Of a stretch of DNA of 64,000 nt, positions 34-28,835 are shown in pieces (positions within the stretch are counted from its first letter, which is position 1; each line of letters starts with the position of its first letter). The stretch is from the NCBI GenBank assembly GCA_017520845.1, contig JAFXEU010000005.1, forward strand, positions 12,660 to 76,659, read 5' to 3'. A program made the translations under genes and the position numbers. Source of the stretch: Kiritimatiellia bacterium (GTDB lineage: Bacteria; Verrucomicrobiota; Kiritimatiellia; RFP12; UBA1067). The notes beneath the pieces were generated by a model. It saw nothing but the letters and a program-made list of their open reading frames with translations, was not told the origin of the DNA and ran no database searches.

Positions 34-2412
34 ATGACGTTCGTCACCGACGGACTCTTTCCGAAAACGGAACGTAAAAACGGTTCGTCTAACGGCTCCA
101 ACGGCAATGCGGCCAATCCCGGCGGGAGGATTTACGATCTTGCCGATGAAAAGACGCAGCCGTTCGACGTCAAACGTCTTTCGGACGTGAAATTCAACGC
201 AAGCGCATTGTCCGAGACCCTTCTGACTCAGAATCATACGGGTGACGCCAAAAACGATTGGATGAAACTTTTGAGCGTAATCGGTTGCGTGTCTCTTTAC
301 GATTATCTCGACGCGGATAAGGCGCCGCTTTCAATCGCGTTGCCTACCGTGGAACGCTTCCCCATGATTTGCGGAATTCAACCCGATATCCGCGATGTCA
401 AAATCGGAATCGAGAAAACCGTTACGCCCGAAGGCGATGAGACTTCCTCCGACTTTCCAGGGGCCGAGGCCGCTGCCGACGGAACAAGAACGGTTGAGGT
501 GACATTGCGTTATATGCTTAAAAGGGATCTTTTTCAGCAGGGCATGGATTCAAGTTCTGTTCGTGTACTTACCGTTTTCCCGTTTGCACGTAAAGACGAT
601 AACGACGGAAAGTTCGAACTCGACGGACGGATGTCCCTGTTTTTCTCATCTGAGGAAATGGGATTAAGAACCGGTGACGGCGCAAAGAACGGAGGGGATC
701 TTATTCATCTTGAAAAGGAGATCGCCGAATCGGACATCGACAAGGAAAAAGGTCTTATGAACATCAGGTTCGAAATTCCTTCTTCATCCGAACTTAAACC
801 GTCAGGAAGCATCAGCACGGAGATCGAAGCCGTTAAAAAGGTCGACATTCCCGTCGGTCAGCAAGCAAGGAATATATCTTCCGCGTTCTCGGAAGAAGGC
901 AATGAATTGCTTAAAGTCGTTTATCGCTGGCAGCAAACTTCCCGTAAAGACCCGCAGAGCGGAATTGTAACATGGGAGCCTTCTTTAGAAACCGTAATGC
1001 GGCGGAAAGATCCGAACGATATTCAATTGGCGGCGACGGCGTTCCCCGCTTTGAAGTCCGACGGATCGAAAGATTCCGATTTTGACGCCGGAAATCTGAA
1101 AAATCTGGTGATGGGCGGAAAAGAACTCTACCTCAACAGCGCCTTTTGGTTCCGTGTTAAACAGGCGGACGGAGACAAGAAGGTGGTTGACATGGTGCCC
1201 GCGTGCGTGGAAGATGATAATATTCAAAACGGCGTGAACGCTTCCGGCGCACTGGCAGGTTTGGGGCCGAGGGTTCTTGGCGGCTCGCCGTTTCCGCTGC
1301 TTAAGTTCAAAACGGGCATCACTCTTACTTTTTCGATAGAGGAGCTTGAGAAAATGGCTAAGGACGGCGAAGGCGGCAAAGAGCTGACATTTGCGCCGAG
1401 AGCCGCCATTGTCGCGGACCCCCGATATAATTATGCGCCGGAAGAATGGTTCGGTGTCGACCAGGCGCTCAGCGAGGACGTTTGGGTTCAGAACAACAGG
1501 GCGAAAGACAGAGGCAACGGTCGTGACGGCGATATTTTTATGTCGACGAGCGATTCCGGTTATCTGCAAAGCATATACGAATTGGCGTTTCTTCCCCGTC
1601 TGACGGATTTAAGTCTCAACGGTCAAAGTACGCCCAAGAATTTTGTCGCGGATTTCAACCGTAAGGATCTGCCCGCTTCGTTCGAGGAGACGCGGAACAA
1701 CGCTCTTGCATGGCGCACCTACGATCCTTTCAGGTACGACAAAGAGGCTTTCAAGGATCTTCCGTTCGTCAACGAGGGCAGCGGCTTCAAGGTGAATCCG
1801 TATTCCGATTCCGTTAACGTAATGATGGCGGTTTTTGCCAACACTCCCCTCGGATGGACTCAGGCTTCCACCAACAAGATCGAAGGGATGAAGGTCGACT
1901 ATACGAGTCTCGACATGGAGGAGTTTAATAAAAAGTACGCTTTCAACGCGTATTCCACCGACAAGAGCGCGGTTATTCCGTGGGAGGTTCTGGAGAAGGT
2001 CGCCGAGAATATGATCGCCGCGGTCAAGAGTTCCAACCAGGGCGGCCAATCCAAAGATTGGGAAGACGTATTCCTGGAAGATTTGGGGTGGGACAATACC
2101 GATGAGAACAGATTTCTCGGCGTGGAAAATACGGAAAACTCCAATGTTAAACTGTGGGGTGTCGACAAGAAATTCCTTTACGGCTTTTGGAAGGACTGCT
2201 TCGCCGTCAAGCAGCAGCTGTTCCTCGTGTTTGTCCGAGCGGAGCCGACCATGATGGGCAGCGGCGCTTCAGGTCACGCTCCGCCGCAGTTGGGCGGAAA
2301 GGCCGTCGCTCTCGTCTGGCGCGATCCTACGCCTTCACAGTCCGCAACTGGAGATTCCAGGAGAGCGGTTCCGCATAAGACGAGAGTTCTCTTTTACAGG
2401 CAGTTTGAATAA
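34..2412 (+). CDS. Large hypothetical protein (>=792 aa), possibly 5'-truncated by the window edge
   Basis: Long ORF with composition matching its neighbours. The frame is open from nt 1 with no stop before the ATG at 34, so the true start may lie upstream. I recognise no catalytic or binding motif. It directly precedes a pseudopilin-like gene. Confidence 0.6.
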   Translation: MTFVTDGLFPKTERKNGSSNGSNGNAANPGGRIYDLADEKTQPFDVKRLSDVKFNASALSETLLTQNHTGDAKNDWMKLLSVIGCVSLYDYLDADKAPLSIALPTVERFPMICGIQPDIRDVKIGIEKTVTPEGDETSSDFPGAEAAADGTRTVEVTLRYMLKRDLFQQGMDSSSVRVLTVFPFARKDDNDGKFELDGRMSLFFSSEEMGLRTGDGAKNGGDLIHLEKEIAESDIDKEKGLMNIRFEIPSSSELKPSGSISTEIEAVKKVDIPVGQQARNISSAFSEEGNELLKVVYRWQQTSRKDPQSGIVTWEPSLETVMRRKDPNDIQLAATAFPALKSDGSKDSDFDAGNLKNLVMGGKELYLNSAFWFRVKQADGDKKVVDMVPACVEDDNIQNGVNASGALAGLGPRVLGGSPFPLLKFKTGITLTFSIEELEKMAKDGEGGKELTFAPRAAIVADPRYNYAPEEWFGVDQALSEDVWVQNNRAKDRGNGRDGDIFMSTSDSGYLQSIYELAFLPRLTDLSLNGQSTPKNFVADFNRKDLPASFEETRNNALAWRTYDPFRYDKEAFKDLPFVNEGSGFKVNPYSDSVNVMMAVFANTPLGWTQASTNKIEGMKVDYTSLDMEEFNKKYAFNAYSTDKSAVIPWEVLEKVAENMIAAVKSSNQGGQSKDWEDVFLEDLGWDNTDENRFLGVENTENSNVKLWGVDKKFLYGFWKDCFAVKQQLFLVFVRAEPTMMGSGASGHAPPQLGGKAVALVWRDPTPSQSATGDSRRAVPHKTRVLFYRQFE

Positions 2413-2435
2413 ACTTTATCGATAGAAAGGTCGTT

Positions 2436-3338
2436 ATGAAAAAGGGGTTTACTTTAGTTGAGATTCTGGTCGTCATCGGCATCATCGGGCTTATTATGGC
2501 CTCGCTTATTTATTTCTTCGGCAGCACCGAGTCCGCACGCTCGGCCGAGTGTCTCGTCAATATGAAGAATCTCGCCAATGCCGTTCAGGACGCGAGAGCC
2601 TCGACGGGATCGGTCATGCGCTATCCGCTTGCAGGATCGCAGGAGGGCCGCAAAACGAATTACGGAGAGCGAGACAACTTTGTCGAATATCCCGGGTGGA
2701 TCAGCTGGAATTCCCAGGGTGCATACAGAACAAAGCCCCGTGAACACATTTCGAGTTCCTCGTGGCTGACGTCCGCTTATTGCCAGGACGAAGAAACGCG
2801 CGAGTATTGCATTACAAACGGAGCGCTTTACAGGTATGTCAAGAATTACAAGACTTACCTCTGTCCGGGACACGTTAAAAAAATGCCGAACGACCAGCGT
2901 CCGGCGTGGAGTTACGTGATGAACGGCCGTTTCGGATACGATCATTCCGAGGGTGCTTATGAAACGGCTCCGTCCGATGATCATCCCGGCCTTGATATCG
3001 ATTCCGAGGCGTCTAGGCTGGCCCATAAGACGCTTCTTTTCGCCGAACTTCAGTGGGAGGATTATACTGAAAACAAACCTGATTTTTCTGCCGGTACCGG
3101 TTTCAGGAACGACTGTACGCTTCAGTACAACGATGAAGACGGCGGCGAAATGATCGGTTTCAACCACAAGGACGGCAAGGACATCGTAGCTCATATCGTA
3201 TTTGCCGACGGGCATGTCGATAAAATCGTTTATCCGAAGAAGGGGCTAAGCGCCAACGAGCTGAAGAAGTTGACCGAGTTCCTCTGCACCGGTACGGATT
3301 ATGAAATCCGCGACGGCTCCGTCAAAGAGATTGATTAA
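2436..3338 (+). CDS. Prepilin-type N-terminal cleavage/methylation domain protein (type II secretion pseudopilin-like, DUF1559/H-X9-DG-like C-terminus)
   Basis: The N-terminus MKKGFTLVEILVVIGIIGLIMA is a classic prepilin leader plus hydrophobic helix (G|FTLVE). It is followed by ECLVNMKNLANAVQ and the C-terminal HIVFADGHVDKI motif typical of the PVC pseudopilin family. An RBS-like GAAAGG lies upstream. Confidence 0.85.
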   Translation: MKKGFTLVEILVVIGIIGLIMASLIYFFGSTESARSAECLVNMKNLANAVQDARASTGSVMRYPLAGSQEGRKTNYGERDNFVEYPGWISWNSQGAYRTKPREHISSSSWLTSAYCQDEETREYCITNGALYRYVKNYKTYLCPGHVKKMPNDQRPAWSYVMNGRFGYDHSEGAYETAPSDDHPGLDIDSEASRLAHKTLLFAELQWEDYTENKPDFSAGTGFRNDCTLQYNDEDGGEMIGFNHKDGKDIVAHIVFADGHVDKIVYPKKGLSANELKKLTEFLCTGTDYEIRDGSVKEID

Positions 3339-21450: not shown

Positions 21451-21737
21451 TCCGCCTGAATTTTGAGCGAGAACAATATTTATGAGGCGGTAGAAATAAA
21501 GAAGAATTTACGTGGCTCCATGAAATGTCTCGGAATTTTGATTTTTTGTTAAGATATCCTTTGGGTAAAGAACTTGGGATTTGATTTTTGAGGGTCATTA
21601 TTGATAAAATTTTTTGTTATGGGTCACTATCTAGATGAAATGAAATATGCATTGCGAACCTGATTAGGAGATAGCAAGCCAAGTCGGTTTGCCTTAATTG
21701 ATTTCTGTAATGCGTGATTCAAAAACGGAGCAGTATT

Positions 21738-24700
21738 ATGCGCAGCATAGTTCGAGGGGTTGTCGCTTTGGTCGCGGCATTTTGCATCATTAATGCGGTT
21801 AAAGCCGCGCCGACGATAGTCAGCCCGGCTGACTACTCAGCTGTAGCGACATTAACACCTACAATGAAGGGGTATATATATGCTTCTGATTTTTTAAATA
21901 CTACTTCGCCGTATTTTAATGTTGCTAGTACTGATGAAAGTCCGAATGAAAGACGCGATGGGTATTTAAATGAGTATTTTTATAGGAACTCTGTTCCAGT
22001 GACTTTGTCGTGGTCGGGAACTACAGGTATATGCACAATTAAGGTGTGGCGTACTAAAAAAGATTCAGAATCTAAGCCGAGTTTTTCAACAACGACATCG
22101 GGATCGTCAATTCAATTTTATAATCCTGAAATTGGCAGGAACTATACTTGGAAGGTAATAGATTCGAGCGGTAATTCCGCTACTGGTCATTTCTACACAG
22201 AATCTACCGCTCCTCGTATTATTCGAGGTCGTAGAGACGATCAGACTGAAGGAGCTGATTGCTCAAATGGTCGTGATATTGGCGGATGGCGTACAAGCGA
22301 TGGTACGAAAGTCGTTAAACAAGGTTTGATTTATAGATCGCAGCAGCTTGAGTGGTGTTCTGCAGGGGGTGGCGACGGTATATATGAGACGCTTTCAATG
22401 CTTTACGATACTTTAGGCATCAGACTTGATCTTGATCTTCGTACTATAACAAATGTAAAGTATTTTGAGGATTGGAAGGCTGCTTGGAATGATAATAAAC
22501 CGTTTGATGATTATTTGAAAAAGTCAGGTGTCGGTCCTAATGTTGTTCGCTTTGTCATTGAAAACGAAACTCTTGGCTTAGGACCTTCATCTAACCCTCG
22601 TAAAATAGACGGTAAGTCAGGAATAAAGTTTCCTGATCATAAGTATTTCGTTGAATCAATGAGTACTTCCGATAAAATTGATGGAACAACTACAAAATAT
22701 ACACAAACTGCCGATCAAAACAAAATTGCTGTTTGGGTTGCGTTCAATAGACTTTATCAGTCGGTTGTTGTGGATAAAGAGCCTGCGATTTTCCATTGCT
22801 CTCATGGTAAAGATAGAACCGGTACTTTAGCATTGGTGCTTCATGGTCTATTAGGTGTGTCCGTAGATGATGCTAAAAGAGATTACGCAACCGCCTGGTT
22901 CTGTAACCAGGATACAACAATGACATTTTCTAGTATTAACAGCTTGATTACAAGTTTAAAGGGGTATGATTCCGGGAATAATTTCCAAAAGGGTTGCGAG
23001 GCTTATTTGAAAGAGTGTGCAACGAAAGCAAGCGATTCTTCCGGCGCTACAAAGATTGCCGCTTTTAAAACTGCAATGCTTGAAGACATCGAAGCGTCAG
23101 ACGGAGATGAGGTCGCGCCTGAGCCTGAAGAAGATACATTTACCTATAAAAATTATTATTGGCGTCGTTATGCTGGAGGTGGAACTTGGTCTTCGGGTAC
23201 GGGATATTGGTATAAAGATCCCTCGGATGATGCCAAAAAATATGCAGGAGGGGATTATCCTGATTCTTATGATGTCTGTGCATATCTTATGCCTACAAAA
23301 TCTTTGCCATATGCAACTCCCGCTGCCGGTAAATATAAATTAGGAAAATTAATTATTGATGCTAATGGCGTTTCGGGTGATGATCATATTGCTACATCTA
23401 CTTTGCAGCCCTATTTTTCTAATGAAGGACATTCTGTAAGTGATCGTTCCATTATTGAACTTAGAAGTGGAGTTTGCGAATTTGAAAATATGGATATTTA
23501 CCTTACTGTGTGGGGTAAAACCAAATATGATAGTGCAAGTTCCAGAACTTCCGTTTTTAACGGAACGGCATCTGTCGATGTTTGGGCCAATGCGACTTTG
23601 AGAGTATCTGATTTTATATCAGTAAGTGCTTCTAAAACTTATTTAAAATTCCCTTCTGATAATTGTGCAAATGCACGTTTTGAGGCTTTTGAACATGGTG
23701 ATACGGATTATCCTTACAACAGTATAGGCTGGTTTACAGGCGGATTGGTCGGCACCAAGCAATATATCAAGGTTCAAGGCGCATATCCTCTTAAATTTTC
23801 TGCTTCAGGCAAGACGAGCGGTGTAGCAGGTTCGCTTGGTCTTGAGTTTGAATTGGGTGCTAATAATAAAACTACGACAGCAGCGATGCTTCAAGTTACG
23901 GGGTCATTAAATATAAATGCTGGATCAACAATTACTGTTAATGCTGGCGGTAAGGGCGCTGGTACATATAAGTTAGTTTCAGCAGGAACGCTGAATGATT
24001 ATGCGAATCTTGATTTACGATCTAATTATACTGTTACAAATTGTAAATCCGGGTATTATGGTACTATTGTAAAATCAGGAAACAATATTAATTTGACAAT
24101 CCAAGAAGGAACGCCTCCCGCTGAAGACGAAGGTCTAATTGATATAGAGAGTGATGGCGATTGGGGGTATCGCCTAAATATTGGTAATGAGATTGTTCTC
24201 GCTTTTACCAATCATACAAAATCGGTTAATTGGCAAGTTCCCTCGAAGCTCGAGAATGTTCAGTTCCTCGTAGTCGGCGGCGGCGGTGGTGGCGGCGCCG
24301 ACTCTAATAACGGTAATACTCATGCTGGTGCCGGCGGCGGTGGCGGCGGCGTTGTTACGGGATTGGTAGACTTCGCCGAAAACTCCGTTGTTACTATTAC
24401 TGTTGGTGCGGGTGGTAATGGAGGTGTCCGCGCCACCCAAGGCGGTACAAACAATAAGTATGGTGCCGCTTTCTCGGGCGAGGCCAGTTCTATTAATGTT
24501 GACGGAGCCGAGTATGTATGGGCTGCCGGCGGCGGCGGTGATAATGGCGCTGATGTATCGACAAATGCATCAAAGACCAAGGGTAATGTCGGTAATGACG
24601 GAGGGTCAAGCGCAGGTTCTCGCCCAGGTCAGACCGGCCGTGGAGCTGTTATTGCGCCTCGTGTCGCTTCGGTATCAGATATAAAGTATGCCGATACGTC

Positions 24701-27700
24701 GTTTGGTCGTCAGGGCGGTGCCGGTTATTATGTTACATCTGCGGATGGTTCGAATACATTTTACGGCTATTTCTCCGCGGCGGGCGGCGGCGGCGGCGCT
24801 ACGCAGGACGGTGGATCCGCGGTTGATTATACGAATGCGGGTAATGGCGGCGAAGGTTTGATGTCTTCGATTACCGGTCAAGCTGTTGTTTATGGTTCCG
24901 GCGGCGGTGGTGCTACTTTGAACGGCACCAACGGCGGTAAGGGCGGCACGGGTGCCGGCGACGGCAATACGGCAGACGTCGTCAATGGTACTGCCAGTAT
25001 GGATGCGCTCCCGAATCAGGGCGGCGGCGGCGGCGGCAGTGCGCGCGCTATAAACACGAACAGCAGCGGCGTAGGTGTCGGCGGTAACGGCGGCTCGGGT
25101 ATTGTTGTTTTGCGCTATGTCGATCCTGATTATTCGGATTCTCTGATCAATCCTACCGAGTATGGTGCAGCAGATTCTGCGGCATCGACTTATACGTGGA
25201 TTGGGTATACGGGACCTTGGATGTATACGACCAATTGGGCGGCTACAGCAAGCGGAACATACGGAGTTCCCAATAACGGAACTTACGCGACGGCGGACTT
25301 CCCCGCGACGCTCGCGAATGCGTTTACTTGTACGCTTAACCAGAATGTTTCGGTCAATAAGGCTGAATTTAATTCGCCTAATATGACATTCGTTTTGGAT
25401 AATGCGCTTTTAACCCTTAAAGGTAAGGTCGATAGCTATGCAGCGTGCGACTTCGGTGATGGTGAAAACGATAATTCCACCATTGAATTGAGAGGCGCTA
25501 ACGCTGGAATTGTTTCAGACACTAAAGAAGTTCGTCTCAATTTTGGCTATCGCCATGATGAAGCGACTCCGACTGGAACTGTAACCGTTCGCTTCGTTGT
25601 TCCTGAAACCGGTTGGGAGAGCGATGCGAGACTTAAAGCGACCGGTACAGATTCTAAGGTTGTTTTTTATGCCAACTCTAAGCTCGAGATTGATGCGACG
25701 GCTCTTGGTGTTCCGGCCGAAGGTACGACAAAAACCGTTTATCTCGCTTCGGGTACGGGAGATGATGGCGTTTATGTTTTATCTGGCGAAACTAATATCG
25801 TTTGCGCGGCAGGCGCCAAGGGCTCTATAAAGATTGAAAACAAGAAGCTCGTTCTTACGGTTGAGCCCGATCCCGAGGGAACACAGCCGCCGCCGGTGGG
25901 CGATTGGAGCGAAATACCCTCGCTTTCGACGAATATTTTCAATGCCGGCACGTCGATAACCGTATTCAACGGCATGTGCGAGAATAGAATGGTTACGGCT
26001 AACTACACGGCTGCCGACATTGCCGCGCTCAAGCCCGGAACTTATACCTTCCGCGCGACGGCGAGCGCGGATGGTGCCGAAAGTCTCGTTTACGAGATCG
26101 ACTTCTGGGTGCTCCCCGCCGATTTCAGCGCGGAGAATACGATCGTCTGCTACGGCGATTCGATCACTTACGGTGCAGGGGCTGTTAAAATTACAGTTGA
26201 CGGGCGTGAAAACTATTTTGAAGGGCGTATGAAGGGCCAGACGATTGAAGGTAATTATCCTTATTATCTCGCGGGCATGATCAACAGTAAGTACAATGTT
26301 ATCAATCAAGGTACGCCCCAGCAGTGGAGCGATACGATTCTCGCCTGGGTGGGCGGAGTTGATACGGTTTCGCGTCTGCCTGTTACGCTGCCGCAAGGGG
26401 GCGGCGATGTTTGGGCTCCTACAAACATTGTCTTTACGACCGATAATCCGTATGGTCCAGAGGGCGGCTTGCATTATGTGCGTACAATCGACTATCCGCC
26501 CTACACGTCTAACGGAGACAGAAATAAAAACCATCCTCTCAATTACTTCGCCGGTCTTGCAACGACTATGTATCCGGCGTTCGAGGCGTATCCAGAGCCG
26601 TCGGGTATAAACGGTTCGATGACGGGTTGGTTCGGCAATAAGCGTGTACGTATTCATGGCGTTAAGGACGCTAATTTATACTTTAGCGGTGATAATCCTA
26701 ATGGTGTATATTGTACAGATCATAGATGGCAACGCGTCAGTACAGAAGGTAACCAGACGATCATTCCCGCCGGAACTCCGTTTGTTCCCGATACGGCGAT
26801 CGTGTATAAGGATGCGATTTCGGTAATCTATACCGGTACGAACGACGAGATGGGTAAAGAAACATATAATAACAATAAAGATCCTGATATCGATCACACG
26901 ACATACATAAATATGATCGCCGATACGGTAGCCAAGATTCCGTCGGGCCGTTATGTCGTCGTATCGACGCTTTCGATAAATCAACGCTCCGACGAGAGCG
27001 AGGCCGCATTCGCGGAGAAGTTCGGTGAGCATCACCTCAACCTTCATAAGATGATGGAGCGTTACGGCGTCTTGGTCGCGAACAAGCTCGGCATTACCGG
27101 TGTTAAGACCTGGGACGCTCTTGACGGCAGCGGTCTTATGAATACCGGCGACTCAGTTCATCCGAACGAGAAGGGCTATCAGGTTATCGCCTATTTCCTC
27201 AAACAGAAGCTTATTGATCTTGAATACATCGAAGGCGAGCGTGATGATGATATCGTATTCGGCGATGGTAATACGGATGATCCGGGCGAAGATACACCTC
27301 CTGTCGAGAGTGCTGTTGTCACAAACGCGATGCCTGAAGCTTCGTGGGGTTATACCGTCAGCGGTCTCGGTGATAACCGCAATGAAGTCGCCGTTGTCTT
27401 TACTAATGAAAACGCGAATATGACTTGGACCGTTCCTCAGAACCTCAAGAATGTCCAGTTCCTCGTTGTCGGTGGTGGCGGCGGCGGCGGTGCGGTTAAC
27501 GGCGACACGCGCACGGCAGGTGCCGGTGGCGGCGGTGGCGGCGTTGTTACCGGCTTGGTAGCCTCTATAGAAAAGGATTCGACTATAACTATTAATGTAG
27601 GTAAAGGCGGTGTAGCGGGCCAAAAGGGTGTAGCAGGGAACGGTAATAATTGGGCGGCTGCGAGTGGTGGAGATAGTATCATAACTTATGGCGATAAACT

Positions 27701-28835
27701 TACGGTAACAGCGTACGGCGGCGGTGGCGATGATGGTGCTTCCAGCGCGACGGCTGCTGTAGGTAACGCTGGTAAGACGGGTGGTTCTAGCGCTGGTTCT
27801 CGCCCTGGGTGTGATACAGAAACGCAACCTAAGGCGAAAGATAGTTGTGTTGTCTCTGGAGATGGATTGATAATCTGTTCGGAAGTGTTCGGTAACGCCG
27901 GTGGTGCAGGCGCTAATGTAGTAGGTCCGTCTGAGCAATATTGGGCGGCTGGTGGTGGCGGCGGCGCTACTGAAGCTGGGTTCGCGGCTACTTCGTGGAT
28001 AGACTGGGATGATTTTAATACTACGCCTGTAGGTAAAGGTATTCACGGCGGTGATGGTGGCGCCGGCTTAATAAGTGATATTACAGGCGAGACATTAGTT
28101 TATGGCTCGGGCGGCGGCGGCGGCTCAGGCGGCGCAAATGAATTGTTAGGCGGTAATGGCGGTATAGGCGCAGGCTCGGGTAAAACCGCCGCGACAACTG
28201 CGACATCTACAGCTTCGATAAATGCATTAGCTAACCAAGGCGGCGGCGGTGGCGGCGGTTATAATGAGGGCGGCTCCGGCGGCTCGGGCATCGTGGTTTT
28301 CCGTTATACCGTCGCGCCTCAATCGCCGTCGGTTGACGGTACGGATTATGCTGCCGACGAGGTGTTCGATCACGCCAAGGTTTTAAAGCCCGTCAAGTAT
28401 CCCGGCAATCCTGAAGTTACGACCAACACGGTTGACGGCGTTGAGGTTATTACCGTTACATTCGGCGGTCTCTCCGACGAAGTTCCTTCGTGCTATAATG
28501 TCACCAAGGTTGCTGACGATAACGGTTATCAGATTGTTCTTGCGATCAAGGACGAGTTCAAAAATCCCGTTATCGCCAACTCTGCGGATAACGCGACTCA
28601 CGCGATCTGGGTCGAGAACGGCAAGGTTAAGATTCATCTTGAGGGAACTCACAATAAGCTTCATTACTCGCTTATGACGTCGACATCGCTTGAGGCGGGC
28701 GTATTTTGGACGACGGCGAACGGCAAATGGTCCGACAACGCCAACTTCGAGTTCGGCGACGGCGACAAAAAGCTTGACGACGTTCGCTTCTTCAAGGTGG
28801 GAGAAGTCTCCGACGAGCCGATCGTAACAGAATAA
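21738..28835 (+). CDS. Giant exported multidomain protein (2365 aa): signal peptide, CX5R phosphatase domain, beta-rich spacers, two glycine-rich modules, SGNH hydrolase domain
   Basis: ATG 21738 lies 7 nt after GGAG (21727-21730). The signal peptide is MRSIVRGVVALVAAFCIINAVKA|AP. The ORF is uninterrupted for 7.1 kb and is followed by a strong terminator. Sub-features give the domain motifs. The ORF-track start (GTG 21714) is an alternative. Confidence 0.85.
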   Translation: MRSIVRGVVALVAAFCIINAVKAAPTIVSPADYSAVATLTPTMKGYIYASDFLNTTSPYFNVASTDESPNERRDGYLNEYFYRNSVPVTLSWSGTTGICTIKVWRTKKDSESKPSFSTTTSGSSIQFYNPEIGRNYTWKVIDSSGNSATGHFYTESTAPRIIRGRRDDQTEGADCSNGRDIGGWRTSDGTKVVKQGLIYRSQQLEWCSAGGGDGIYETLSMLYDTLGIRLDLDLRTITNVKYFEDWKAAWNDNKPFDDYLKKSGVGPNVVRFVIENETLGLGPSSNPRKIDGKSGIKFPDHKYFVESMSTSDKIDGTTTKYTQTADQNKIAVWVAFNRLYQSVVVDKEPAIFHCSHGKDRTGTLALVLHGLLGVSVDDAKRDYATAWFCNQDTTMTFSSINSLITSLKGYDSGNNFQKGCEAYLKECATKASDSSGATKIAAFKTAMLEDIEASDGDEVAPEPEEDTFTYKNYYWRRYAGGGTWSSGTGYWYKDPSDDAKKYAGGDYPDSYDVCAYLMPTKSLPYATPAAGKYKLGKLIIDANGVSGDDHIATSTLQPYFSNEGHSVSDRSIIELRSGVCEFENMDIYLTVWGKTKYDSASSRTSVFNGTASVDVWANATLRVSDFISVSASKTYLKFPSDNCANARFEAFEHGDTDYPYNSIGWFTGGLVGTKQYIKVQGAYPLKFSASGKTSGVAGSLGLEFELGANNKTTTAAMLQVTGSLNINAGSTITVNAGGKGAGTYKLVSAGTLNDYANLDLRSNYTVTNCKSGYYGTIVKSGNNINLTIQEGTPPAEDEGLIDIESDGDWGYRLNIGNEIVLAFTNHTKSVNWQVPSKLENVQFLVVGGGGGGGADSNNGNTHAGAGGGGGGVVTGLVDFAENSVVTITVGAGGNGGVRATQGGTNNKYGAAFSGEASSINVDGAEYVWAAGGGGDNGADVSTNASKTKGNVGNDGGSSAGSRPGQTGRGAVIAPRVASVSDIKYADTSFGRQGGAGYYVTSADGSNTFYGYFSAAGGGGGATQDGGSAVDYTNAGNGGEGLMSSITGQAVVYGSGGGGATLNGTNGGKGGTGAGDGNTADVVNGTASMDALPNQGGGGGGSARAINTNSSGVGVGGNGGSGIVVLRYVDPDYSDSLINPTEYGAADSAASTYTWIGYTGPWMYTTNWAATASGTYGVPNNGTYATADFPATLANAFTCTLNQNVSVNKAEFNSPNMTFVLDNALLTLKGKVDSYAACDFGDGENDNSTIELRGANAGIVSDTKEVRLNFGYRHDEATPTGTVTVRFVVPETGWESDARLKATGTDSKVVFYANSKLEIDATALGVPAEGTTKTVYLASGTGDDGVYVLSGETNIVCAAGAKGSIKIENKKLVLTVEPDPEGTQPPPVGDWSEIPSLSTNIFNAGTSITVFNGMCENRMVTANYTAADIAALKPGTYTFRATASADGAESLVYEIDFWVLPADFSAENTIVCYGDSITYGAGAVKITVDGRENYFEGRMKGQTIEGNYPYYLAGMINSKYNVINQGTPQQWSDTILAWVGGVDTVSRLPVTLPQGGGDVWAPTNIVFTTDNPYGPEGGLHYVRTIDYPPYTSNGDRNKNHPLNYFAGLATTMYPAFEAYPEPSGINGSMTGWFGNKRVRIHGVKDANLYFSGDNPNGVYCTDHRWQRVSTEGNQTIIPAGTPFVPDTAIVYKDAISVIYTGTNDEMGKETYNNNKDPDIDHTTYINMIADTVAKIPSGRYVVVSTLSINQRSDESEAAFAEKFGEHHLNLHKMMERYGVLVANKLGITGVKTWDALDGSGLMNTGDSVHPNEKGYQVIAYFLKQKLIDLEYIEGERDDDIVFGDGNTDDPGEDTPPVESAVVTNAMPEASWGYTVSGLGDNRNEVAVVFTNENANMTWTVPQNLKNVQFLVVGGGGGGGAVNGDTRTAGAGGGGGGVVTGLVASIEKDSTITINVGKGGVAGQKGVAGNGNNWAAASGGDSIITYGDKLTVTAYGGGGDDGASSATAAVGNAGKTGGSSAGSRPGCDTETQPKAKDSCVVSGDGLIICSEVFGNAGGAGANVVGPSEQYWAAGGGGGATEAGFAATSWIDWDDFNTTPVGKGIHGGDGGAGLISDITGETLVYGSGGGGGSGGANELLGGNGGIGAGSGKTAATTATSTASINALANQGGGGGGGYNEGGSGGSGIVVFRYTVAPQSPSVDGTDYAADEVFDHAKVLKPVKYPGNPEVTTNTVDGVEVITVTFGGLSDEVPSCYNVTKVADDNGYQIVLAIKDEFKNPVIANSADNATHAIWVENGKVKIHLEGTHNKLHYSLMTSTSLEAGVFWTTANGKWSDNANFEFGDGDKKLDDVRFFKVGEVSDEPIVTE
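22206..23093 (+). other. Protein-tyrosine-phosphatase-family domain (Y_phosphatase3-like) within the giant protein
   Basis: NGRDIGGW...GLIYRSQQL followed by the P-loop FHCSHGKDRTGTLALVL (HCX5R, with the Cys codon at 22797-22799). Confidence 0.75.
24159..25121 (+). repeat. Glycine-rich module, copy 1 (~320 aa) of an intragenic duplication
   Basis: WGYRLNIGNEIVLAFTNHTKSVNWQVPSKLENVQFLVVGGGGGGGA...AGAGGGGGGVVTGLV...GSSAGSRPG...VVYGSGGGG...ALPNQGGGGGG...GGNGGSGIVVLRYV. Confidence 0.85.
26136..27218 (+). other. SGNH/GDSL hydrolase domain within the giant protein
   Basis: Block I IVCYGDSITYG (Ser codon at 26160-26162), block III VIYTGTNDE, block V GDSVHPNEKGYQVIA (DxxH). The spacing between blocks I and III is unusually long at ~225 aa. 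Confidence 0.75.
27342..28310 (+). repeat. Glycine-rich module, copy 2 of the intragenic duplication
   Basis: WGYTVSGLGDNRNEVAVVFTNENANMTWTVPQNLKNVQFLVVGGGGGGGA...AGAGGGGGGVVTGLV...GSSAGSRPG...LVYGSGGGG...ALANQGGGGGG...GGSGGSGIVVFRYT. The motif order is the same as in copy 1. Confidence 0.85.

Follow-up and report, generated by a model that had tools for sequence, protein, structure and literature searches.

Paired Gly_rich_2 modules in a predicted secreted multidomain protein of a Kiritimatiellia bacterium

What are two long glycine-rich segments doing on either side of a hydrolase-like region in a single, very large bacterial protein? The question is raised by a 64,000-nucleotide stretch of contig JAFXEU010000005.1 from a Kiritimatiellia bacterium (GenBank assembly GCA_017520845.1), referred to here as the window. 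At 21738..28835 on the + strand, the window contains a gene for a predicted secreted multidomain protein of 2365 amino acids (aa), delimited with an open reading frame (ORF) list, an orthologue alignment, and synteny in other metagenomes. A first-pass annotation of this DNA had described the two segments as diverged copies of one module, formed by duplication within the gene and folded into a discrete domain of no known type. Both modules lie in frame in the same ORF. They are almost certainly members of the Gly_rich_2 family (PF21722), with a fold that combines a beta-sandwich and a polyglycine lattice, and the explanation that we consider probable on balance is that they are folded recognition heads on a secreted enzyme, diversified by cassette swaps. 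The two modules are as follows.

24159..25121, + strand: module A, Gly_rich_2, aa 816-1136, 26.8% Gly (PF21722 61.2 bits; AlphaFold2; Foldseek)
27342..28310, + strand: module B, Gly_rich_2, aa 1877-2199, 27.2% Gly (PF21722 74.8 bits; AlphaFold2; Foldseek against PDB and BFVD)

Similarity, family and fold of the two modules

The resemblance between modules A and B extends over their full length. A global MAFFT alignment has 158 identical columns out of 299 aligned (53%), with 86 identities among the 227 columns that are not Gly-Gly pairs, and seven landmark motifs are present in both modules in the same order. Composition-adjusted BLASTP aligned 277 aa at 35% identity (E = 9e-14). The Smith-Waterman score was 620, compared to 150 +/- 14.5 in 300 shuffles (z = 32); when all Gly residues were masked to X, it was 135 compared to 28 +/- 4 (z = 26.6). 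Because the masked score is far above that of the shuffled sequences, the similarity goes beyond the Gly runs. The likeness noticed at first reading was thereby borne out, and the concern that it might be confined to the Gly runs can be set aside. BLASTP of the whole protein against itself returned no off-diagonal matches, and the similarity of the modules is taken from the pairwise alignments.

At the nucleotide level, the conserved word quoted in the first-pass annotation is exact at 24255 and 27450. As had been claimed, DNA similarity is detectable in the cores only (71% over 174 nt, compared to 55% over the aligned codons overall), and the duplication is therefore old. A recent duplication, a slippage product, or an assembly artefact could in principle have been suspected, since the draft genome is in 116 contigs and holds many paralogous copies. 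This explanation is hardly credible given the low DNA identity, the rejection of A and B as sisters in an approximately unbiased (AU) test described below, and the presence of the two-module gene in independent assemblies from other samples. The view of the two copies as old and maintained is upheld by the same low identity and by the retention of both modules in alleles of 66-95% identity.

Both modules score above the PF21722 gathering threshold of 24.3 bits and match the profile nearly end to end (positions 3-225 for A and 4-225 for B, of 226). The whole protein scored 115.9 bits in two stretches, and the two modules scored 58.0 and 54.7 bits in a whole-genome search. Apart from PF21722, only PF13350 and PF00657 came up in a Pfam scan of the protein at E <= 0.1; neither the ALK_LTK_GRD profile nor PF05268 (phage gp38 adhesin) matched in it. 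The family is also called 'Glycine-rich domain', 'glycine-rich domain-containing protein' (PGAP), or PHROG 2295. The modules likewise match phrog_2295 (function not known) and phrog_863 (category 'tail'), and NCBIfam has no family for them. A literature search found nothing relevant on PF21722 or on glycine-rich proteins in Kiritimatiellae, and the name of the glycine-rich domain led to plant papers only. The module starts proposed earlier precede the Pfam envelope by about 20 aa. They are sound, as they take in two extra conserved and confidently modelled N-terminal beta-strands (WGY..., NEVAVVFTN), by which this subfamily differs from the rest of PF21722.

AlphaFold2 was applied to each module alone, with 34 and 32 homologues in the input alignments. 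The models have a mean predicted local distance difference test (pLDDT) score of 87.6 and a predicted template modelling (pTM) score of 0.89 for module B, and 87.4 and 0.90 for module A. Each contains 12-13 beta-strands, and the Gly motifs, which DSSP assigns to neither helix nor strand, have high pLDDT. Foldseek searches against the PDB gave 19 matches for B and 22 for A at E <= 1e-3, all of them to the Bxb1 tail tip, Pam3 gp24, or ALK/LTK. Chains Qa and Qb of the Bxb1 tail tip were matched at E = 1e-8 to 8e-8 with template modelling (TM) scores of 0.42-0.61, and the Pam3 fibre protein gp24 at E = 3e-6 to 3e-4. A search of BFVD, a database of predicted viral structures, gave 264 matches at E <= 1e-3 with TM-scores of up to 0.71, mostly to phage, prasinovirus, or halovirus proteins named 'Glycine-rich domain-containing protein'. 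The earlier proposal of a discrete fold is thus supported by confident models, but the fold is not a novel one: it is that of PF21722, with solved neighbours in phage fibres and in ALK/LTK. A Rossmann-like reading of the beta-strand followed by GGGGGG was considered and dropped, as nucleotide-binding folds were absent among the structural matches.

The anatomy of the domain was examined in an alignment of 33 copies, comprising genome paralogues and metagenomic homologues, in which the positions of module B were classed as strand, Gly motif, or other.

12 Gly motifs: mean top-residue frequency 0.82, mean gap fraction 0.01
Strands: mean top-residue frequency 0.54, mean gap fraction 0.05
Inter-motif segments: mean top-residue frequency 0.31, mean gap fraction 0.21

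The Gly motifs occupy module positions 44-50, 60-67, 87-93, 126-132, 144-152, 184-190, 203-209, 237-242, 255-261, 270-280, 298-306, and 310-316. Most insertions are located in the inter-motif segments, which vary in both sequence and length and coincide with the low-pLDDT stretches of both models. Each module is predicted to be a compact beta-sandwich with six projecting hairpin loops, whose 12 Gly motifs may form a parallel array of extended strands of the polyglycine type. The DSSP state of the motifs is compatible with the polyglycine-II (PGII) conformation and is no proof of it.

Low-complexity, disordered linkers that resemble each other by composition would be the simplest account of sequences with 27% Gly, runs of up to seven Gly residues, and no match in PDB sequence searches. 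It is very hard to reconcile with a Gly-masked alignment 26.6 standard deviations above the shuffled ones, 86 identical non-Gly columns, a Pfam match over the full length, and confident models with 12-13 beta-strands, and we regard it as highly improbable. For annotation, the appropriate label for Gly-rich stretches of this kind is Gly_rich_2 domain, not low-complexity linker.

The best solved neighbour of both modules is chain Q of the Bxb1 tail tip (PDB 9D93), the gp33 'tail wing brush' (PMC13243192), which is matched at E = 1e-8 and 3e-8 with TM-scores of 0.42-0.61 and 22% identity. It differs in being a 230-aa virion protein, and no ligand is defined for it in the literature found. Bxb1 gp33 and gp29 and the Pam3 fibre have been listed as polyproline-II (PPII) helical bundles (PMC13243192). 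Pam3 gp24 (PDB 7YPX and 7YFW; E = 3e-6 and 6e-6, TM 0.39-0.53) has a TNF-like sandwich with six loops that carry two Gly-rich motifs each, 12 in all, and stack into a lattice; its variable distal tip has been proposed to bind the receptor (PMC9608196). The modules share with it the beta-sandwich, the six loops with 12 Gly-rich motifs, the conserved stems, and the variable ends. Unlike the modules, which are internal to one long chain and comprise about 320 aa, gp24 is a chaperone-dependent trimer of about 250 aa with an N-terminal helical shaft, and it has no sequence-level match to them.

The TG domain of ALK/LTK (PDB 7LIR, 7LS0, 7N00, 7NX1, and 7NX3) was matched by both modules at E = 2e-5 to 1e-3. 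It is also a beta-sandwich with a PGII helix lattice, and it binds a protein ligand. However, it belongs to a metazoan receptor, the TM-scores are only 0.24-0.31, and ALK has 14 PGII helices (PMC12227593) compared to 12 motifs in the modules. The gp38 adhesins of T-even phages (Salmonella phage S16, PDB 6F45; PF05268) follow the same principle, in which conserved Gly motifs form a PGII scaffold and hypervariable segments determine specificity. The modules are not members of that family, however; 6F45 is outside the top 50 Foldseek matches, and gp38 has 10 PGII helices and another base domain (PMC9608196). Precomputed PF05268 matches exist only for homologues P0188 and P0218, one of which is apparently the C12 protein of this genome; our own scan at E <= 0.001 did not return PF05268 for the C12 protein, and the precomputed match is therefore weak.

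The domain family is already catalogued and the fold class has solved representatives, with the same fold in hundreds of predicted phage and giant-virus members; in this respect, the protein is an ordinary additional member. The remaining interest lies in the role of the cellular copies, which occur two to seven per protein in giant enzymes instead of at a fibre tip, and in their domain-wise allelic replacement at a fixed locus.

The protein and its relatives in the genome

The other features of the gene are listed below.

21738..21806, + strand: probable Sec signal peptide MRSIVRGVVALVAAFCIINAVKA, followed by APTIVSP (read from the sequence)
22257..22895, + strand: Y_phosphatase3 domain (PF13350), aa 182-394 (Pfam E = 4.2e-23)
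25122..26135, + strand: region of about 340 aa without a family match (Pfam scan; allele identity profile)
26136..27218, + strand: SGNH/GDSL-type hydrolase region (GDS at 26154, DxxH at 27150-27164)
28311..28832, + strand: C-terminal region of about 174 aa without a family match, ending in ...RFFKVGEVSDEPIVTE (Pfam scan)

The ORF is open from a GTG at 21714, and orthologues begin at codon 9, the ATG at 21738 (MRSIVRG...); the alignment of orthologue P0041 begins at residue 9 of the longer ORF. P0041 has an identical signal peptide, and the N-termini of in-genome paralogues resemble it closely; the protein is predicted from its sequence to be exported via Sec. The phosphatase domain contains the HCX5R loop (HCSHGKDRTG, 22794-22823), and the stretch between this domain and module A has no assigned family. 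Motifs of the SGNH-type region are GDSITYG at aa 1481 and DSVHP at aa 1813. Lipase_GDSL scored 22.9 bits on this region, slightly below the cut-off of 23.6, and orthologues carry precomputed PF00657/PF13472 matches. The bacterium is an uncultured member of the ruminant-gut Kiritimatiellae, and its closest relatives are Kiritimatiellae metagenome-assembled genomes from yak gut.

The 2.74-Mb draft genome contains 22 PF21722 matches in eleven ORFs, with one, two, or five per protein; these ORFs total about 16,600 aa and represent about 1.8% of the genome. PGII helix bundles are still called rare, with a handful solved (PMC12227593, PMC13243192), and ALK, S16 gp38, Obg, and the antifreeze protein of the snow flea are among the few other natural examples (PMC12227593). 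Against so few solved examples of a rare fold stand 22 predicted bundles in one genome. Four of the eleven proteins have a common signal peptide and phosphatase N-terminus, one carries a polysaccharide deacetylase domain, and the N-terminal region of the C85 protein is 68% identical to aa 1401-1850 of the window protein, the part that contains the SGNH region. The fusion partners of the domain across the genome are Y_phosphatase3, SGNH, and polysaccharide deacetylase domains, and the N-termini of the fusion proteins resemble signal peptides.

Two proteins illustrate the range of these fusions. A paralogue of at least 3007 aa (G000:C94:2-9022, L024) begins with the same phosphatase domain, carries five Gly_rich_2 domains, and runs off the contig end. 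A 2630-aa protein (L029:1056-8945, G000:C79:29195-37084) has a polysaccharide deacetylase domain (PF01522, E = 3e-15) alongside Gly_rich_2 copies that belong to a divergent subtype, and its gene is located directly downstream of that of a 345-aa single-domain Gly_rich_2 protein.

The origin of the pair was addressed with a maximum-likelihood tree of 20 domain copies. Module B is sister to C68:3022-3867 (support 97/93), and module A groups with C68:4489-5331 and C85:43912-44736 (support 91/88). Constraining A and B to be sisters lowers the log-likelihood by 18.6 units, and the AU test rejects this arrangement (p = 0.0075). The C68 paralogue has the same two module types in the same order. Because A and B are not sisters and each pairs with a C68 module, their split predates the separation of the window gene from this paralogue. 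Of the intragenic duplication proposed earlier, the presence of two diverged copies in one gene stands; an origin within the gene is only one possibility, as A and B are not each other's closest relatives and the genome contains 22 copies. The two copies stem from an old duplication that preceded the split from the C68 paralogue, both having been kept since, and domain shuffling may have brought the pair together. Recent gene conversion with in-genome paralogues was not seen; since the best paralogue DNA match is only 84% over 462 nt (C85), there are no recent conversion tracts.

The distribution of the family is patchy. Among 121 genomes sampled from the phylum, seven have any match, and about 20 matches are found only in this genome and one other, although draft assemblies may under-count repeats. 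The second expanded genome, G007 (4.0 Mb, 10 contigs), is from the same order and has 19 matches. Three of four genomes of the same family have none, as is the case for most relatives. Of 14 well-known genomes used as controls, Methanosarcina acetivorans was the only one to score.

Allelic replacement at the locus

Full-length metagenomic homologues of the protein have 95%, 80%, 80%, 67%, and 66% identity and lengths of 2344-2374 aa. Every one of them carries two Gly_rich_2 stretches. A strain comparison for copy-number variation, suggested in the first-pass annotation, revealed no such variation, because all alleles hold two modules. The best-conserved part of the protein is the region between module A and the SGNH-type region (25122..26135), which is 92-100% identical in five of the six full-length alleles compared (P0178-P0182) and 86-98% in P0179.

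The gene is preceded by a DUF4381-like gene and a BatA/VWA gene and followed by htpX (M48) and tex. The P0179 and P0041 genes occupy the same MoxR-DUF58-x-BatA locus; the P0179 contigs continue into htpX-tex, and the P0041 contig ends just past the gene. The flanking DNA of both loci is mostly 97-100% identical to the window. Within this conserved setting, positions 21901-25200 have no BLASTN-level similarity to P0041 (L034), and protein identity is about 20-70%. The replaced part comprises the phosphatase domain, the middle region, and all of module A; identity climbs to 90-98% from about aa 1144, a few codons past the last strand of this module. P0179 (L032) has the phosphatase part alone replaced (21901-23100). 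The exchanged 5' parts measure 3.3 kb and 1.2 kb, respectively, with boundaries just past the signal peptide and at domain ends. Conversely, P0040 and P0202, proteins that otherwise differ, have module A in common at 88-98%. The interval 22001-24000, which coincides with the replaceable 5' part, has a GC content of 40.5% compared to 50-58% in neighbouring 2-kb windows and about 52% elsewhere.

A smaller replacement was identified within module B by alignment of six alleles.

27576..27707, + strand: allelic cassette in module B, aa 1955-1998

This cassette exists in two versions and is bracketed by the conserved Gly motifs GAGGGGGGVVTG and YGGGGDDGA, with flanks that are 98-100% identical. In a profile of 50-aa blocks, the block containing it (block 40) falls to 58-60% identity between blocks at 98-100%. 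The Gly motifs of gp38 have reportedly been proposed as recombination sites, an idea attributed to Trojet and colleagues in 2011. Strains diversify the protein by swapping domains and cassettes via recombination and not by changing copy number. The long GGY-codon runs had been put forward as substrates for recombination or slippage. The former is supported in part by the sharp cassettes, one of which lies between Gly motifs in module B. Slippage is unsupported, because the longest perfect run is (GGC)6 and no Gly run changes in length among the alleles.

The locus also bears on whether the gene could be a domesticated or degenerate prophage tail-fibre gene, with modules that are phage receptor-binding domains without a cellular role. 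The nearest structural and family matches are indeed phage proteins, and a 4-kb contig of the same bin (C116) has baseplate genes and a tail-fibre gene ending in Gly_rich_2. The fibre domain is only a distant relative, however (E = 6e-7), and the gene in the window encodes a signal-peptide-like N-terminus and two enzyme domains. No phage genes are found among its neighbours (DUF4381-like, BatA/VWA, HtpX, and Tex), it lies between the MoxR/DUF58/BatA operon and htpX-tex in several strains, and about ten more cellular proteins of the same design exist in the genome. A prophage origin of this kind is therefore very improbable.

Contig C116 itself (L031, G000:C116:1-4077; ORFs 215-1375, 1371-1934, and 1937-3145) is a phage or prophage fragment. 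It encodes a baseplate wedge protein (phrog_6, E = 2e-64), a baseplate/tail protein, and a 403-aa tail fibre whose C-terminal half is a divergent Gly_rich_2 domain. Because it is in the same bin, phage and cellular uses of Gly_rich_2 coexist in one assembly, with the binning of C116 being putative.

Possible roles of the modules

We lean slightly towards a role of the modules in target recognition, as heads resembling an adhesin or a carbohydrate-binding module. This reading is suggested by three indirect lines of evidence: every solved relative makes contact with a receptor or ligand, the enzymes to which the domain is fused are secreted ones that include carbohydrate esterase types, and the variable segments, like the cassettes, behave as determinants of specificity would. 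Such heads would hold the phosphatase, which is of the protein tyrosine phosphatase (PTP) type, and the SGNH esterase on a particular surface or polymer, and binding specificity would reside in the variable inter-motif segments. If so, the modules would represent an unstudied class of binding modules on phosphatases and carbohydrate esterases of gut bacteria, and the swapping of cassettes among strains would mark surface determinants under diversifying pressure.

Several points weigh against a recognition role. No cellular member of PF21722 is known to have a binding partner or an activity. When the PDB was searched by sequence, neither a single module nor a profile built from 34 sequences found a match, and the link to the solved structures is therefore one of fold comparison only; the TM-scores to those structures reach only 0.4-0.6. 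The packing of the Gly motifs as PGII strands is inferred from this fold similarity. The variable segments comprise beta-strands as well as loop tips, and a rigid Gly lattice could equally be a structural or oligomerising element.

The last point leads to the main competing explanation, in which the modules are either spacers made of a rigid, protease-resistant polyglycine lattice or units for TNF-like oligomerisation. They would space and display the enzyme domains, or bundle several of the giant proteins as a surface layer. Among solved neighbours, Pam3 gp24 ranks second behind the Bxb1 chains, and it forms an obligate trimer via its TNF-like and helical parts (PMC9608196). Proteins of the family typically have two or more copies of the domain, up to seven, as would be the case for repeated structural units, and the lattice-forming Gly motifs are the most conserved part. 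On the other hand, the domain is the ligand- or receptor-contacting part in every solved relative, and neither hypervariable inter-motif segments nor syntenic cassette replacement would be expected of a pure spacer. A purely structural role is accordingly possible, but we consider it unlikely.

Returning to recognition heads, a bolder version can be offered only tentatively, and we doubt that it is correct. The modules may be exchangeable targeting heads of the phage-receptor-binding type, of which ruminant-gut Kiritimatiellae would keep a library of about 20, replaced as domains or as Gly-motif-bracketed cassettes at fixed loci. Cells would then have their own equivalent of the gp38 scheme, with changing targets or phage/host pressure as the driving force.

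The C-terminal ends of these proteins are also conserved. Small proteins of 340-380 aa consist of a signal peptide and one Gly_rich_2 domain and have the common end RYK(D/E)P(I/N)xxGFKVIVR-stop; examples are G000:C39:995-2089 and G000:C79:28140-29174 (L029:1-1035). The same end is found in homologues P0008, P0013, P0016, P0018, P0019, and others. The larger proteins, including the one in the window, end in a domain of about 170 aa with an RFFKV or RFYKA motif followed by an acidic tail, and C-terminal tails homologous to that of the window protein occur in P0006, P0029, and C68. These conserved C-terminal tags and domains may serve as a lineage-specific sorting or anchoring signal.

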